Source: Naegleria gruberi (Eukaryota). Taken from it: 64,000 nucleotides of DNA. The stretch is from the NCBI GenBank assembly GCA_000004985.1, contig GG738849.1, one strand, 5' to 3'. Below, piece by piece: positions 6,001 to 27,262 of the stretch. Position 1 is the first letter of the stretch. Every line of letters begins with the position of its first letter. The position numbers were made by a program, and so were the translations under genes. Below the pieces are notes generated by a model, which ran no database searches, was not told the origin of the DNA, and was given only the letters and a program-made list of their open reading frames with translations.

Positions 6001-9000
6001 NNNNNNNNNNNNNNNNNNNNNNNNNNNNNNNNNNNNNNNNNNNNNNNNNNNNNNNNNNNNNNNNNNNNNNNNNNNNNNNNNNNNNNNNNNNNNNNNNNNN
6101 NNNNNNNNNNNNNNNNNNNNNNNNNNNNNNNNNNNNNNNNNNNNNNNNNNNNNNNNNNNNNNNNNNNNNNNNNNNNNNNNNNNNNNNNNNNNNNNNNNNN
6201 NNNNNNNNNNNNNNNNNNNNNNNNNNNNNNNNNNNNNNNNNNNNNNNNNNNNNNNNNNNNNNNNNNNNNNNNNNNNNNNNNNNNNNNNNNNNNNNNNNNN
6301 NNNNNNNNNNNNNNNNNNNNNNNNNNNNNNNNNNNNNNNNNNNNNNNNNNNNNNNNNNNNNNNNNNNNNNNNNNNNNNNNNNNNNNNNNNNNNNNNNNNN
6401 NNNNNNNNNNNNNNNNNNNNNNNNNNNNNNNNNNNNNNNNNNNNNNNNNNNNNNNNNNNNNNNNNNNNNNNNNNNNNNNNNNNNNNNNNNNNNNNNNNNN
6501 NNNNNNNNNNNNNNNNNNNNNNNNNNNNNNNNNNNNNNNNNNNNNNNNNNNNNNNNNNNNNNNNNNNNNNNNNNNNNNNNNNNNNNNNNNNNNNNNNNNN
6601 NNNNNNNNNNNNNNNNNNNNNNNNNNNNNNNNNNNNNNNNNNNNNNNNNNNNNNNNNNNNNNNNNNNNNNNNNNNNNNNNNNNNNNNNNNNNNNNNNNNN
6701 NNNNNNNNNNNNNNNNNNNNNNNNNNNNNNNNNNNNNNNNNNNNNNNNNNNNNNNNNNNNNNNNNNNNNNNNNNNNNNNNNNNNNNNNNNNNNNNNNNNN
6801 NNNNNNNNNNNNNNNNNNNNNNNNNNNNNNNNNNNNNNNNNNNNNNNNNNNNNNNNNNNNNNNNNNNNNNNNNNNNNNNNNNNNNNNNNNNNNNNNNNNN
6901 NNNNNNNNNNNNNNNNNNNNNNNNNNNNNNNNNNNNNNNNNNNNNNNNNNNNNNNNNNNNNNNNNNNNNNNNNNNNNNNNNNNNNNNNNNNNNNNNNNNN
7001 NNNNNNNNNNNNNNNNNNNNNNNNNNNNNNNNNNNNNNNNNNNNNNNNNNNNNNNNNNNNNNNNNNNNNNNNNNNNNNNNNNNNNNNNNNNNNNNNNNNN
7101 NNNNNNNNNNNNNNNNNNNNNNNNNNNNNNNNNNNNNNNNNNNNNNNNNNNNNNNNNNNNNNNNNNNNNNNNNNNNNNNNNNNNNNNNNNNNNNNNNNNN
7201 NNNNNNNNNNNNNNNNNNNNNNNNNNNNNNNNNNNNNNNNNNNNNNNNNNNNNNNNNNNNNNNNNNNNNNNNNNNNNNNNNNNNNNNNNNNNNNNNNNNN
7301 NNNNNNNNNNNNNNNNNNNNNNNNNNNNNNNNNNNNNNNNNNNNNNNNNNNNNNNNNNNNNNNNNNNNNNNNNNNNNNNNNNNNNNNNNNNNNNNNNNNN
7401 NNNNNNNNNNNNNNNNNNNNNNNNNNNNNNNNNNNNNNNNNNNNNNNNNNNNNNNNNNNNNNNNNNNNNNNNNNNNNNNNNNNNNNNNNNNNNNNNNNNN
7501 NNNNNNNNNNNNNNNNNNNNNNNNNNNNNNNNNNNNNNNNNNNNNNNNNNNNNNNNNNNNNNNNNNNNNNNNNNNNNNNNNNNNNNNNNNNNNNNNNNNN
7601 NNNNNNNNNNNNNNNNNNNNNNNNNNNNNNNNNNNNNNNNNNNNNNNNNNNNNNNNNNNNNNNNNNNNNNNNNNNNNNNNNNNNNNNNNNNNNNNNNNNN
7701 NNNNNNNNNNNNNNNNNNNNNNNNNNNNNNNNNNNNNNNNNNNNNNNNNNNNNNNNNNNNNNNNNNNNNNNNNNNNNNNNNNNNNNNNNNNNNNNNNNNN
7801 NNNNNNNNNNNNNNNNNNNNNNNNNNNNNNNNNNNNNNNNNNNNNNNNNNNNNNNNNNNNNNNNNNNNNNNNNNNNNNNNNNNNNNNNNNNNNNNNNNNN
7901 NNNNNNNNNNNNNNNNNNNNNNNNNNNNNNNNNNNNNNNNNNNNNNNNNNNNNNNNNNNNNNNNNNNNNNNNNNNNNNNNNNNNNNNNNNNNNNNNNNNN
8001 NNNNNNNNNNNNNNNNNNNNNNNNNNNNNNNNNNNNNNNNNNNNNNNNNNNNNNNNNNNNNNNNNNNNNNNNNNNNNNNNNNNNNNNNNNNNNNNNNNNN
8101 NNNNNNNNNNNNNNNNNNNNNNNNNNNNNNNNNNNNNNNNNNNNNNNNNNNNNNNNNNNNNNNNNNNNNNNNNNNNNNNNNNNNNNNNNNNNNNNNNNNN
8201 NNNNNNNNNNNNNNNNNNNNNNNNNNNNNNNNNNNNNNNNNNNNNNNNNNNNNNNNNNNNNNNNNNNNNNNNNNNNNNNNNNNNNNNNNNNNNNNNNNNN
8301 NNNNNNNNNNNNNNNNNNNNNNNNNNNNNNNNNNNNNNNNNNNNNNNNNNNNNNNNNNNNNNNNNNNNNNNNNNNNNNNNNNNNNNNNNNNNNNNNNNNN
8401 NNNNNNNNNNNNNNNNNNNNNNNNNNNNNNNNNNNNNNNNNNNNNNNNNNNNNNNNNNNNNNNNNNNNNNNNNNNNNNNNNNNNNNNNNNNNNNNNNNNN
8501 NNNNNNNNNNNNNNNNNNNNNNNNNNNNNNNNNNNNNNNNNNNNNNNNNNNNNNNNNNNNNNNNNNNNNNNNNNNNNNNNNNNNNNNNNNNNNNNNNNNN
8601 NNNNNNNNNNNNNNNNNNNNNNNNNNNNNNNNNNNNNNNNNNNNNNNNNNNNNNNNNNNNNNNNNNNNNNNNNNNNNNNNNNNNNNNNNNNNNNNNNNNN
8701 NNNNNNNNNNNNNNNNNNNNNNNNNNNNNNNNNNNNNNNNNNNNNNNNNNNNNNNNNNNNNNNNNNNNNNNNNNNNNNNNNNNNNNNNNNNNNNNNNNNN
8801 NNNNNNNNNNNNNNNNNNNNNNNNNNNNNNNNNNNNNNNNNNNNNNNNNNNNNNNNNNNNNNNNNNNNNNNNNNNNNNNNNNNNNNNNNNNNNNNNNNNN
8901 NNNNNNNNNNNNNNNNNNNNNNNNNNNNNNNNNNNNNNNNNNNNNNNNNNNNNNNNNNNNNNNNNNNNNNNNNNNNNNNNNNNNNNNNNNNNNNNNNNNN

Positions 9001-24000: not shown

Positions 24001-25951
24001 NNNNNNNNNNNNNNNNNNNNNNNNNNNNNNNNNNNNNNNNNNNNNNNNNNNNNNNNNNNNNNNNNNNNNNNNNNNNNNNNNNNNNNNNNNNNNNNNNNNN
24101 NNNNNNNNNNNNNNNNNNNNNNNNNNNNNNNNNNNNNNNNNNNNNNNNNNNNNNNNNNNNNNNNNNNNNNNNNNNNNNNNNNNNNNNNNNNNNNNNNNNN
24201 NNNNNNNNNNNNNNNNNNNNNNNNNNNNNNNNNNNNNNNNNNNNNNNNNNNNNNNNNNNNNNNNNNNNNNNNNNNNNNNNNNNNNNNNNNNNNNNNNNNN
24301 NNNNNNNNNNNNNNNNNNNNNNNNNNNNNNNNNNNNNNNNNNNNNNNNNNNNNNNNNNNNNNNNNNNNNNNNNNNNNNNNNNNNNNNNNNNNNNNNNNNN
24401 NNNNNNNNNNNNNNNNNNNNNNNNNNNNNNNNNNNNNNNNNNNNNNNNNNNNNNNNNNNNNNNNNNNNNNNNNNNNNNNNNNNNNNNNNNNNNNNNNNNN
24501 NNNNNNNNNNNNNNNNNNNNNNNNNNNNNNNNNNNNNNNNNNNNNNNNNNNNNNNNNNNNNNNNNNNNNNNNNNNNNNNNNNNNNNNNNNNNNNNNNNNN
24601 NNNNNNNNNNNNNNNNNNNNNNNNNNNNNNNNNNNNNNNNNNNNNNNNNNNNNNNNNNNNNNNNNNNNNNNNNNNNNNNNNNNNNNNNNNNNNNNNNNNN
24701 NNNNNNNNNNNNNNNNNNNNNNNNNNNNNNNNNNNNNNNNNNNNNNNNNNNNNNNNNNNNNNNNNNNNNNNNNNNNNNNNNNNNNNNNNNNNNNNNNNNN
24801 NNNNNNNNNNNNNNNNNNNNNNNNNNNNNNNNNNNNNNNNNNNNNNNNNNNNNNNNNNNNNNNNNNNNNNNNNNNNNNNNNNNNNNNNNNNNNNNNNNNN
24901 NNNNNNNNNNNNNNNNNNNNNNNNNNNNNNNNNNNNNNNNNNNNNNNNNNNNNNNNNNNNNNNNNNNNNNNNNNNNNNNNNNNNNNNNNNNNNNNNNNNN
25001 NNNNNNNNNNNNNNNNNNNNNNNNNNNNNNNNNNNNNNNNNNNNNNNNNNNNNNNNNNNNNNNNNNNNNNNNNNNNNNNNNNNNNNNNNNNNNNNNNNNN
25101 NNNNNNNNNNNNNNNNNNNNNNNNNNNNNNNNNNNNNNNNNNNNNNNNNNNNNNNNNNNNNNNNNNNNNNNNNNNNNNNNNNNNNNNNNNNNNNNNNNNN
25201 NNNNNNNNNNNNNNNNNNNNNNNNNNNNNNNNNNNNNNNNNNNNNNNNNNNNNNNNNNNNNNNNNNNNNNNNNNNNNNNNNNNNNNNNNNNNNNNNNNNN
25301 NNNNNNNNNNNNNNNNNNNNNNNNNNNNNNNNNNNNNNNNNNNNNNNNNNNNNNNNNNNNNNNNNNNNNNNNNNNNNNNNNNNNNNNNNNNNNNNNNNNN
25401 NNNNNNNNNNNNNNNNNNNNNNNNNNNNNNNNNNNNNNNNNNNNNNNNNNNNNNNNNNNNNNNNNNNNNNNNNNNNNNNNNNNNNNNNNNNNNNNNNNNN
25501 NNNNNNNNNNNNNNNNNNNNNNNNNNNNNNNNNNNNNNNNNNNNNNNNNNNNNNNNNNNNNNNNNNNNNNNNNNNNNNNNNNNNNNNNNNNNNNNNNNNN
25601 NNNNNNNNNNNNNNNNNNNNNNNNNNNNNNNNNNNNNNNNNNNNNNNNNNNNNNNNNNNNNNNNNNNNNNNNNNNNNNNNNNNNNNNNNNNNNNNNNNNN
25701 NNNNNNNNNNNNNNNNNNNNNNNNNNNNNNNNNNNNNNNNNNNNNNNNNNNNNNNNNNNNNNNNNNNNNNNNNNNNNNNNNNNNNNNNNNNNNNNNNNNN
25801 NNNNNNNNNNNNNNNNNNNNNNNNNNNNNNNNNNNNNNNNNNNNNNNNNNNNNNNNNNNNNNNNNNNNNNNNNNNNNNNNNNNNNNNNNNNNNNNNNNNN
25901 NNNNNNNNNNNNNNNNNNNNNNNNNNNNNNNNNNNNNNNNNNNNNNNNNNN
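1..25951. other. Hard-masked or gap sequence (continuous N run); no information available
   Basis: Every base in this range is 'n' in the supplied sequence. Confidence 1.
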
Positions 25952-26844
25952 ACATTTAGAGATTGGATTGAATTGAAAAATCCAAGACTCACTGGAATAA
26001 CCATTGCAGGTAATAATTCCACTAAATTAAATAATAACCAAAAAGCCACAACTCTCTTCCTTTCATTTCTTTGTTTGAATATAATCATCTGAGGATGATC
26101 TTGAATATTTTCATAAGAATCCACTTCTCTGGTTCCTTTCAAAAATTGATATGATTTCCAAGATTTGTAAAAGCAAAAACCAGTCAAAATTAACAGTGTC
26201 AGAGTAACAAATGTTGCAAATAGGAATGGTACTAAAAGTGTTCCCACAAAATCCGAGTCATCATCCCACAAATAAGAAATCTTTAAATTTCCAATCACTG
26301 ACAGGTATTTGAAATATTTTACATTTGATAGATGCCATGGCAGATGAAAATCCGTGAACAATGTAATCCACTGAGCCAGTAATATAAAATGGCACACCAA
26401 TGACACCATTCCCTTATTTGAATGTTTGAAAATCTTGCCAAATAATCGTTCTTTCAAAGAAGACGCGTTTCGTTTCGAGTGTGTTGATGGAGTTGGCATC
26501 TTTTCCAAATCATCATCATTTCCAAAATACAAATACAATTCATAAAAGAAGTAATACAATCCCTTTTCTCTATCCTTCAAAGATAATTGTGGATATAATT
26601 TCTCATAACAAACATCATGATCAGACAATACACTTGCCGATGATACAATATTAGGAATTATTCTCGTGGTTGTTGTTGTTGTTGTAGATATTTGTTGTTG
26701 TTGCTGCTGATGATTATCTCCTCCTCCATTGGATACGATCAAACGAGTAGCCATCTGTTGTTGCTGTTGTGTGTTACTATTGCTATTCATCATCTGGGTC
26801 GCAGATAAATATTGTTGCTCCTCCTGTGGATGATTCGTAGACAT
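25952..26844 (-). CDS. Partial CDS, 5'-complete and 3'-truncated by the N block. Hypothetical membrane protein with an N-terminal Gln/Thr-rich low-complexity region and at least 3 predicted transmembrane segments. Translation: MSTNHPQEEQQYLSATQMMNSNSNTQQQQQMATRLIVSNGGGDNHQQQQQQISTTTTTTTRIIPNIVSSASVLSDHDVCYEKLYPQLSLKDREKGLYYFFYELYLYFGNDDDLEKMPTPSTHSKRNASSLKERLFGKIFKHSNKGMVSLVCHFILLAQWITLFTDFHLPWHLSNVKYFKYLSVIGNLKISYLWDDDSDFVGTLLVPFLFATFVTLTLLILTGFCFYKSWKSYQFLKGTREVDSYENIQDHPQMIIFKQRNERKRVVAFWLLFNLVELLPAMVIPVSLGFFNSIQSLN...
   Basis: I reverse-complemented and translated the sequence by hand. The ATG is the complement of 26842..26844. The frame stays open for 297 codons plus 2 nt down to 25952, where it meets the Ns. 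A stop-free run this long is very unlikely by chance at roughly 35% GC. An in-frame TAA lies 12 codons upstream (complement of 26878..26880) and there is no in-frame ATG between it and 26844. The start context is A-rich (aagaaaaaATGtct). Codon usage is coherent: AGA for Arg, TTG/TTA for Leu, CAA over CAG for Gln. The ORF is absent from the track, presumably because it has no stop in the visible sequence. Confidence 0.8.
25975..26052 (-). other. Predicted transmembrane segment 3 (VVAFWLLFNLVELLPAMVIPVSLGFF). It follows a basic loop KQRNERKR
   Basis: A hydrophobic stretch of about 25 residues. A positively charged loop (KQRNERKR) lies immediately on its N-terminal side, consistent with the positive-inside rule. 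Coordinates are approximate, and the protein continues into the masked region. Confidence 0.55.
26167..26250 (-). other. Predicted transmembrane segment 2 (FVGTLLVPFLFATFVTLTLLILTGFCFY), preceded by an acidic patch WDDDSD
   Basis: About 26 consecutive hydrophobic or small residues with no charge. This is the strongest hydrophobic segment in the ORF. Confidence 0.6.
26347..26412 (-). other. Predicted transmembrane segment 1 of the hypothetical protein (GMVSLVCHFILLAQWITLFTDF)
   Basis: A run of about 20 hydrophobic residues in the hand translation. Coordinates are approximate. Confidence 0.45.
26665..26685 (-). repeat. Imperfect (ACA)5-ACC-ACG trinucleotide tract on the coding strand, (GTT)n on the + strand, encoding Thr7
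   Basis: The + strand reads cgtggttgttgttgttgttgt. The minus-strand codons are ACA ACA ACA ACA ACA ACC ACG. Confidence 0.85.
26692..26709 (-). repeat. Imperfect CAG/CAA trinucleotide tract, (TTG)4(CTG)2 on the + strand, encoding Gln6
   Basis: The + strand reads ttgttgttgttgctgctg. The minus-strand codons are CAG CAG CAA CAA CAA CAA, preceded by CAT (His). Confidence 0.85.
26755..26769 (-). repeat. Imperfect CAA/CAG trinucleotide tract encoding Gln5
   Basis: The + strand reads ctgttgttgctgttg. The minus-strand codons are CAA CAG CAA CAA CAG. Confidence 0.8.
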
Positions 26845-27262
26845 TTTTTCTTGGAGAGTTTTTGGAAAGGCGCCACATTACAATTCAATAAACAAATAAA
26901 TTGGTTGTGAATATTGGAATATTGATAAATGTAGGCAAGAAAGACTGTAATGAAGGGAACATTTGAGGTAATAATCAGCAATAGAGTCATGACGATGAGA
27001 GAGTGAATTTATTGTTGATCGACTTGGTCATAGAGAAGAGAGTGAATGAGGGAAGGAATGGAAGTTTTTGATTCTTGAGCTTGGAGGGAAAGGAGATTGG
27101 CCAGCTCTGGATCTTTTTGGAGGTGAGTGAACATGCTGGTGGCTCTAATGTTTTCCAATTGAATGTTGTAATAGATGTGGATGTATTCAGTGTTGAAAGA
27201 GGAGAGGATGAGGACCAGTTCATTATTGTGTCGGGGAGTGAGCGAAAATTTTCCACAATAAC
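26845..27262 (-). promoter_or_regulatory. Putative 5' flank and promoter of the minus-strand gene. It is pyrimidine (CT)-rich on the gene's sense strand. Two CCAAT motifs lie at + 26900..26904 and 26913..26917 (attgg on the + strand). The ATG context is A-rich
   Basis: The region lies upstream of a well-supported ATG. The + strand is conspicuously purine-rich (for example gagaagagagtgaatgagggaaggaatggaag, ggagggaaaggagattgg, gaaagaggagaggatgaggaccag). The only minus-strand ORFs here are low-complexity and one starts at GTG. The assignment as promoter is inference. Confidence 0.35.

Follow-up and report, generated by a model that had tools for sequence, protein, structure and literature searches.

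A 297-codon frame in an unmasked island of Naegleria gruberi very probably encodes the N-terminal half of NAEGRDRAFT_62913, a predicted polytopic membrane protein of a Naegleriidae family

The window analyzed here, a stretch of 64,000 nucleotides (nt) from Naegleria gruberi contig GG738849.1, consists of 62,689 N (98%), and all results concern its one unmasked island (25952-27262; 1311 bp, guanine-plus-cytosine (GC) content 35.2%). The minus strand of this island carries a 297-codon stop-free reading frame that was assigned with high confidence to the gene NAEGRDRAFT_62913 as its 5′ half (residues 1-297 out of about 590-640), the product being a polytopic membrane protein. GenBank and UniProt already list the gene product, as a predicted protein that is uncharacterised, and the gene is no discovery; the modest added value of the analysis includes the recognition of a Naegleriidae-only family kept in N. 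fowleri, together with a map of its topology and motifs.

An exhaustive phmmer search over 1.84 billion representative proteins matched three proteins, all of the NAEGRDRAFT_62913 family. The best match was an N. gruberi NEG-M 'predicted protein' of 587 amino acids (aa) encoded on an 850-kb contig (NAEGRDRAFT_62913; XP_002681754.1, EFC49010.1, UniProt D2V284) that aligned with 99% identity from 1-297 against 1-297 (E 1.6e-196); the others were a metagenomic ortholog (49% identity, E 1.8e-56) and a hypothetical protein of Willaertia magna (32% identity, E 2.9e-6). The frame shared its start codon with NAEGRDRAFT_62913 and was colinear with residues 1-297, the first half alone being visible in the island. 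Identity extended to 295 of the 297 residues, with A127V and L172R as the substitutions, and the GT that follows codon 297 (25953-25952) before the N block fitted V298, the next residue of the reference. This bore out the proposal of an earlier interpretation made from the letters alone (hereafter the sequence-only reading) that a real gene had been cut by the N block and had for that reason stayed unlisted. The island copy would stem from a strain or haplotype two residues off the reference. A word-indexed single-sequence protein search gave no match even though the 99%-identical protein sits in the same collection, where it was recovered by a profile search as well as by exhaustive phmmer; reliance on the word-indexed result would have led to a false claim of 'no homolog'. 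The genome, viral, and metagenome contig collections contained none of the exact DNA patterns taken from the island.

The frame also displayed the properties of a coding sequence. Translation of the strand agreed with the sequence-only reading, giving 297 sense codons (893 nt with the trailing GT) from the ATG at 26844, which was indeed the first in-frame methionine codon after an in-frame TAA, the 11 intervening codons holding none. When the island was shuffled 2000 times with dinucleotides preserved, no shuffle reached the observed stop-free run of 308 codons (mean 87, standard deviation 20, maximum 243), and the codon-position composition was coding-like, C making up 8% of third positions vs. 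18-21% of first and second positions. A chance stop-free run or non-coding AT-rich DNA was weighed as an alternative, as AT-rich DNA with CAA/ACA repeats can yield long open frames, one of the 2000 shuffles reached 243 codons, and the word-indexed search was blank; its probability is negligible given a run longer than in any shuffle, the near-identity to an annotated protein, and the orthologs in four other species evolving at a ratio of non-synonymous to synonymous substitution rates (dN/dS) of about 0.19.

Profile searches added the N. fowleri and N. lovaniensis orthologs (E ~1e-205 with a three-species profile; Table 1) and returned nothing outside the Naegleriidae even at E ≤ 10 in a large protein collection, and pattern-seeded scans with a five-species alignment yielded no more relatives in contigs from metagenomes or prokaryotic genomes. 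Naegleria and Willaertia are both genera of the Naegleriidae (Heterolobosea), and on this sequence evidence the family is confined to the Naegleriidae and conserved in the pathogen N. fowleri. The orthologs were 35-51% identical to the N. gruberi reference protein over the full length, and the 297-aa fragment was 29-44% identical to three of them. Orthologs and frame shared the N-half motifs FFYELYLY, LPW, PFLF, and LPxxxIP, whereas the orthologs showed no conservation of the low-complexity N-terminal tail or of the loop that leads into the first predicted transmembrane (TM) helix. All family-invariant residues of the N-half were kept in the frame (L89, E93, F99, Y101, E102, Y104, L105, G145, Q158, LPW168-170, PFLF206-209, T214, C224, K230, P279, I283, P284, and N297). 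A dN/dS of 0.19 at dS 0.8 was obtained for N. fowleri vs. N. lovaniensis and of ~0.18-0.19 for the island frame against either species, indicating a gene under purifying selection. NAEGRDRAFT_62913 appears to be single-copy in each species, with one representative found in each.

The layout of the protein was derived from the five-species alignment and family-averaged hydropathy, with residues numbered as in NAEGRDRAFT_62913. The low-complexity N-terminal tail (residues 2-60) had no secondary structure and a predicted local distance difference test (pLDDT) score of ~30 in the AlphaFold2 model. It precedes an aromatic helix in which F99, Y101, E102, Y104, and L105 were invariant in the alignment. 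Eight hydrophobic helices were located at about residues 145-165, 200-226, 265-289, 296-319, 342-359, 362-386, 394-417, and 433-455; the same eight hydrophobic segments were conserved across the five species. Of these elements, the island covers those from the tail through the aromatic helix and TM1-TM3 to the short loop that leads into TM4. The loop before TM3 is K/R-rich (9 K/R in 38 residues) and predicted to be cytosolic, and the K/R counts of the loops (~22 predicted inside vs. ~5 outside) fitted an N-in/C-in orientation. The product would thus be a polytopic membrane protein with ~8 TM helices, both ends predicted to be cytosolic, and a disordered, low-complexity N-terminal tail. A conserved soluble helical region would follow the membrane part, comprising ~130-180 residues from the invariant FEVEM-x2-RTI motif (486-495).

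The 3′ half of the gene lies in masked DNA, with the stop codon predicted at ~25081-25083 if the gene is intronless and has 587 codons like the reference model. The reference model itself is aberrant in this part. It ends in ...SDNISDTCSTLEQGIGLSVNY (residues ~568-587), whereas each of the other four orthologs has an RYCxWxWLDVRxMFYxRTRFWFE block that is missing from it, and its last ~20 residues differ from every ortholog; therefore, its 3′ end may well be mis-modelled and is probably wrong through a missed intron or a frameshift. The aberrant C-terminus, the masked 3′ half, and the two codons among 297 that differ non-synonymously from the reference are also the points in favor of a pseudogene or assembly fragment, disrupted beyond the visible codons, or of a duplicate that has diverged from the reference locus. 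This was considered improbable, as the 297 visible codons are intact with each family-invariant residue of the N-half in place, the syntenic Itfg2-like neighbor (see below) is kept, and the one representative found per species points to a single-copy gene.

The genomic context identified the island as eukaryotic nuclear DNA, as opposed to DNA of a prokaryote or phage. The orthologs reside on 450-810 kb nuclear contigs amid CHMP7, Itfg2, WD40, myosin, calpain, and thioredoxin genes. The metagenomic and Willaertia orthologs share the codon position of a short GT..AG intron (GTAAG..AG), which lies after SNF(V/I) and before ESK; the N. fowleri and N. lovaniensis genes were intronless. The metagenomic protein of the Joint Genome Institute (JGI) and its Logan cluster-mate both stop at ...GKFLD; on the metagenomic contig, a prokaryotic gene caller had read into the intron, which truncated the JGI protein. 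The island GC content equals that published for the N. gruberi genome (35%; PMC6125883, Table 1). Codon usage had suggested a nematode-like eukaryote, a reading discarded in view of the Naegleria match. As a side observation, the 13.8-kb W. magna locus had a GC content of 23% vs. 35-38% at the Naegleria loci, and an Acyl_transf_3 gene occupied the upstream position that the Itfg2-like gene takes in N. fowleri and N. lovaniensis.

An origin of the gene from bacteria, archaea, a plasmid, or a phage, e.g., from a symbiont or an amoeba-infecting giant virus, would suit the prokaryote-oriented open reading frame (ORF) track supplied with the sequence and the fact that Naegleria hosts intracellular bacteria (PMC12482156). 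Such an origin is exceedingly improbable. No Shine-Dalgarno motif was found 5′ of the ATG at 26844, a scan for bacterial signals revealed neither a terminator-like site nor an excess of sigma-70-like sites, and blastn against 50,697 phage and 72,556 plasmid records was blank. The exact patterns were likewise absent from the viral and prokaryotic genome collections, no relative was present among the prokaryotic genome contigs, and the orthologs have nuclear neighbors (CHMP7, Itfg2, WD40, myosin) with spliceosomal introns in two of them. Translation would start from the A-rich ATG at 26844 on what is expected to be an ordinary monocistronic eukaryotic mRNA. The minus strand of the 164-bp spacer holds three out-of-frame ATGs (26876-26878, ~26960-26962, and 26988-26990; the nearest 34 nt from the main ATG), and either the 5′ untranslated region (UTR) is very short or these ATGs represent upstream ORFs. 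Rfam at E ≤ 1 gave just two sub-threshold chance matches.

In N. fowleri and N. lovaniensis, an Itfg2-like beta-propeller gene is directly upstream of the ortholog on the same strand. The island fragment beyond the spacer matched the C-termini of these upstream genes by tblastn (62% identity over 79 aa, E 2e-28 for N. lovaniensis; 57% identity, E 2e-25 for N. fowleri); therefore, the gene order is conserved and the island also carries the 3′ end of an Itfg2-like gene, which runs into the other N block. The claim of the sequence-only reading that the 297-codon frame was the only convincing coding region consequently has to be given up, as 27009-27262 on the minus strand is likewise conserved, giving the island two real gene fragments with 164 bp between them. 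Two other candidates for the coding frame of the neighbor, a 91-codon minus-strand frame (26987-27262) and a 63-codon plus-strand frame, were rejected since the minus-strand frame 27012-27260 was the only one conserved. The N. lovaniensis and N. fowleri neighbor genes carry PF15907 (Itfg2) hits and the 83-residue fragment by itself had no Pfam match, such that its likeness to ITFG2 / KICSTOR-component-like beta-propellers is assigned through transitive homology only.

The mechanical ORF list (at least 60 aa) had two entries, both on the minus strand, and left out the 297-codon frame, as the sequence-only reading had observed. Its description of the two listed ORFs as spurious was also upheld: neither the 66-aa nor the 89-aa ORF had a conserved counterpart in the orthologous loci, and another frame under the 89-aa ORF was the conserved one. 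The list used the bacterial code (table 11) and dropped frames without a stop codon, so the omission is a book-keeping gap, an artefact of masking and a prokaryotic ORF rule. As the island is eukaryotic, which the sequence-only reading had not recognised, a table-11 ORF list was the wrong tool; it missed both real genes of the island and gave two wrong-frame ORFs in their place. Promoter and terminator scans and phage and plasmid collections were likewise unsuited to a eukaryotic island of 1311 bp.

Table 1. Features of the N. gruberi island and orthologs of NAEGRDRAFT_62913 (positions refer to the window unless another contig or locus is given).
Feature	Position	Strand	Basis or remark
Masked N blocks	1-25951 and 27263-64000		
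Coding sequence, 5′ part (codons 1-297 and first 2 nt of codon 298)	25952..26844	-	Translation, phmmer
Start codon ATG, A-rich context AAAAAATGTC	26842..26844	-	Coincides with M1 of the reference protein
In-frame TAA closing the frame, 12 codons 5′ of the ATG	26878..26880	-	Sequence read
Q/T/N/S-rich low-complexity N-terminal tail, residues 2-60 (to 80)	26665..26841	-	Predicted disordered, not conserved
Pre-TM1 aromatic helix, residues 96-106 (YYFFYELYLYF)	26527..26559	-	First strongly conserved motif
Predicted TM1, residues 145-165, then invariant LPW (168-170)	26350..26412	-	Hydropathy, conservation
Predicted TM2, residues 200-226, with invariant PFLF (206-209)	26167..26247	-	Hydropathy, conservation
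Predicted TM3, residues 265-289 (motif LPxxxIP)	25978..26052	-	Hydropathy, conservation
C-terminal half in the orthogroup: TM4-TM8, motifs YEWRF, AKSxxRLD, KTAMNI, FEVEMxxRTI	Below 25952		Would lie in N-masked DNA
Intergenic spacer, 164 bp: presumed 3′ UTR, promoter, 5′ UTR	26845..27008	-	Gene coordinates
3′ end of Itfg2-like neighbor: 83 codons (27260-27012), TAA (27009-27011)	27009..27262	-	tblastn
Listed ORF, 66 aa	26790..26990	-	Spans spacer, not conserved
Listed ORF, 89 aa	26987..27256	-	Wrong frame over Itfg2-like gene end, not conserved
Ortholog, N. lovaniensis C9374_011360			632 aa
Ortholog, N. fowleri FDP41_005841			642 aa
Ortholog, Willaertia magna ABK040_009766			574 aa
Ortholog, environmental amoeba	JGI metagenome 3300002220 contig MLSBCLC_10262723		
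Intron, metagenomic ortholog	1779-1814 of its contig		
Intron, Willaertia ortholog	Within 6001-7812 of the 13.8-kb locus		

With regard to function, the invariant polar residues H355, D371, K390, N394, and E433 fall in the masked half. With H355, D371, K390/N394, and E433 in or at the ends of helices and a conserved cytosolic tail, the protein may be more than a passive scaffold and serve in transport, as a channel-like protein, or in signal transduction, and the helical tail would regulate or couple the membrane part; this suggestion is tentative and less likely to be right than wrong. Similarly speculative is the proposal that the family is without relatives of known fold, combining eight helices and a cytosolic helical domain in a Naegleriidae-specific transport or signaling role with no human counterpart. 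The family, apparently single-copy, under constraint, and confined to Naegleria and Willaertia, is present in the lethal pathogen N. fowleri.

Several results weigh against the assignment to an intact polytopic membrane protein gene and against its functional extension. The helix count (~8) is a prediction from hydropathy alone. AlphaFold2 reached a pLDDT of 45 for the fragment alone and 39 for the full length with a four-sequence alignment, and the models were therefore too poor for a fold search. Many transporters show an internal repeat, and hhalign found none between TM1-4 and TM5-8 (probability 0.7%). Pfam-A and NCBIfam searches returned nothing above threshold (sub-threshold noise only: E 0.18-0.4 for DUF6429 and DUF4728, 0.025 for COX14), Pfam at E ≤ 10 gave noise only, whether each ortholog or its C-terminal tail in isolation was the query, and PDB searches by sequence and profile, including the five-species profile, were empty at E ≤ 10. 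The literature yielded no paper for any locus tag or for the UniProt accession or JGI number. In addition, the 3′ half and stop codon are masked, such that this copy may bear an inactivating lesion, and expression of the gene is a prediction.

These blank searches also bear on whether the protein is a highly diverged member of a known superfamily, e.g., a cyclase-linked/TmcB-like module or a known transporter fold, and not a family of its own. Fast-evolving polytopic proteins often lose detectable similarity, and it is common for a block of several TM helices to precede a helical cytosolic domain. On the other side, the phmmer search reached only members of the protein's own family among 1.84 billion representatives, the three-species profile drew no further match from the large protein collection at E ≤ 10, and the five-species profile against the PDB and Pfam at the same threshold gave blank and noise, respectively. 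Divergence from a known superfamily is consequently a possible but doubtful explanation.

Comparison with known systems offered little from which a mechanism could be borrowed. A link to the TmcB-like or cyclase-associated membrane modules of protists was considered, and it stays a rival reading only, unsupported by Pfam or HMMER. The lineage-restricted ('orphan') polytopic membrane proteins of protists constitute a descriptive category and not a homology family, and no mechanism transfers from them. In its general features, the NAEGRDRAFT_62913 product resembles this category, whose members are likewise multi-pass, have disordered low-complexity termini, and carry no Pfam domain.
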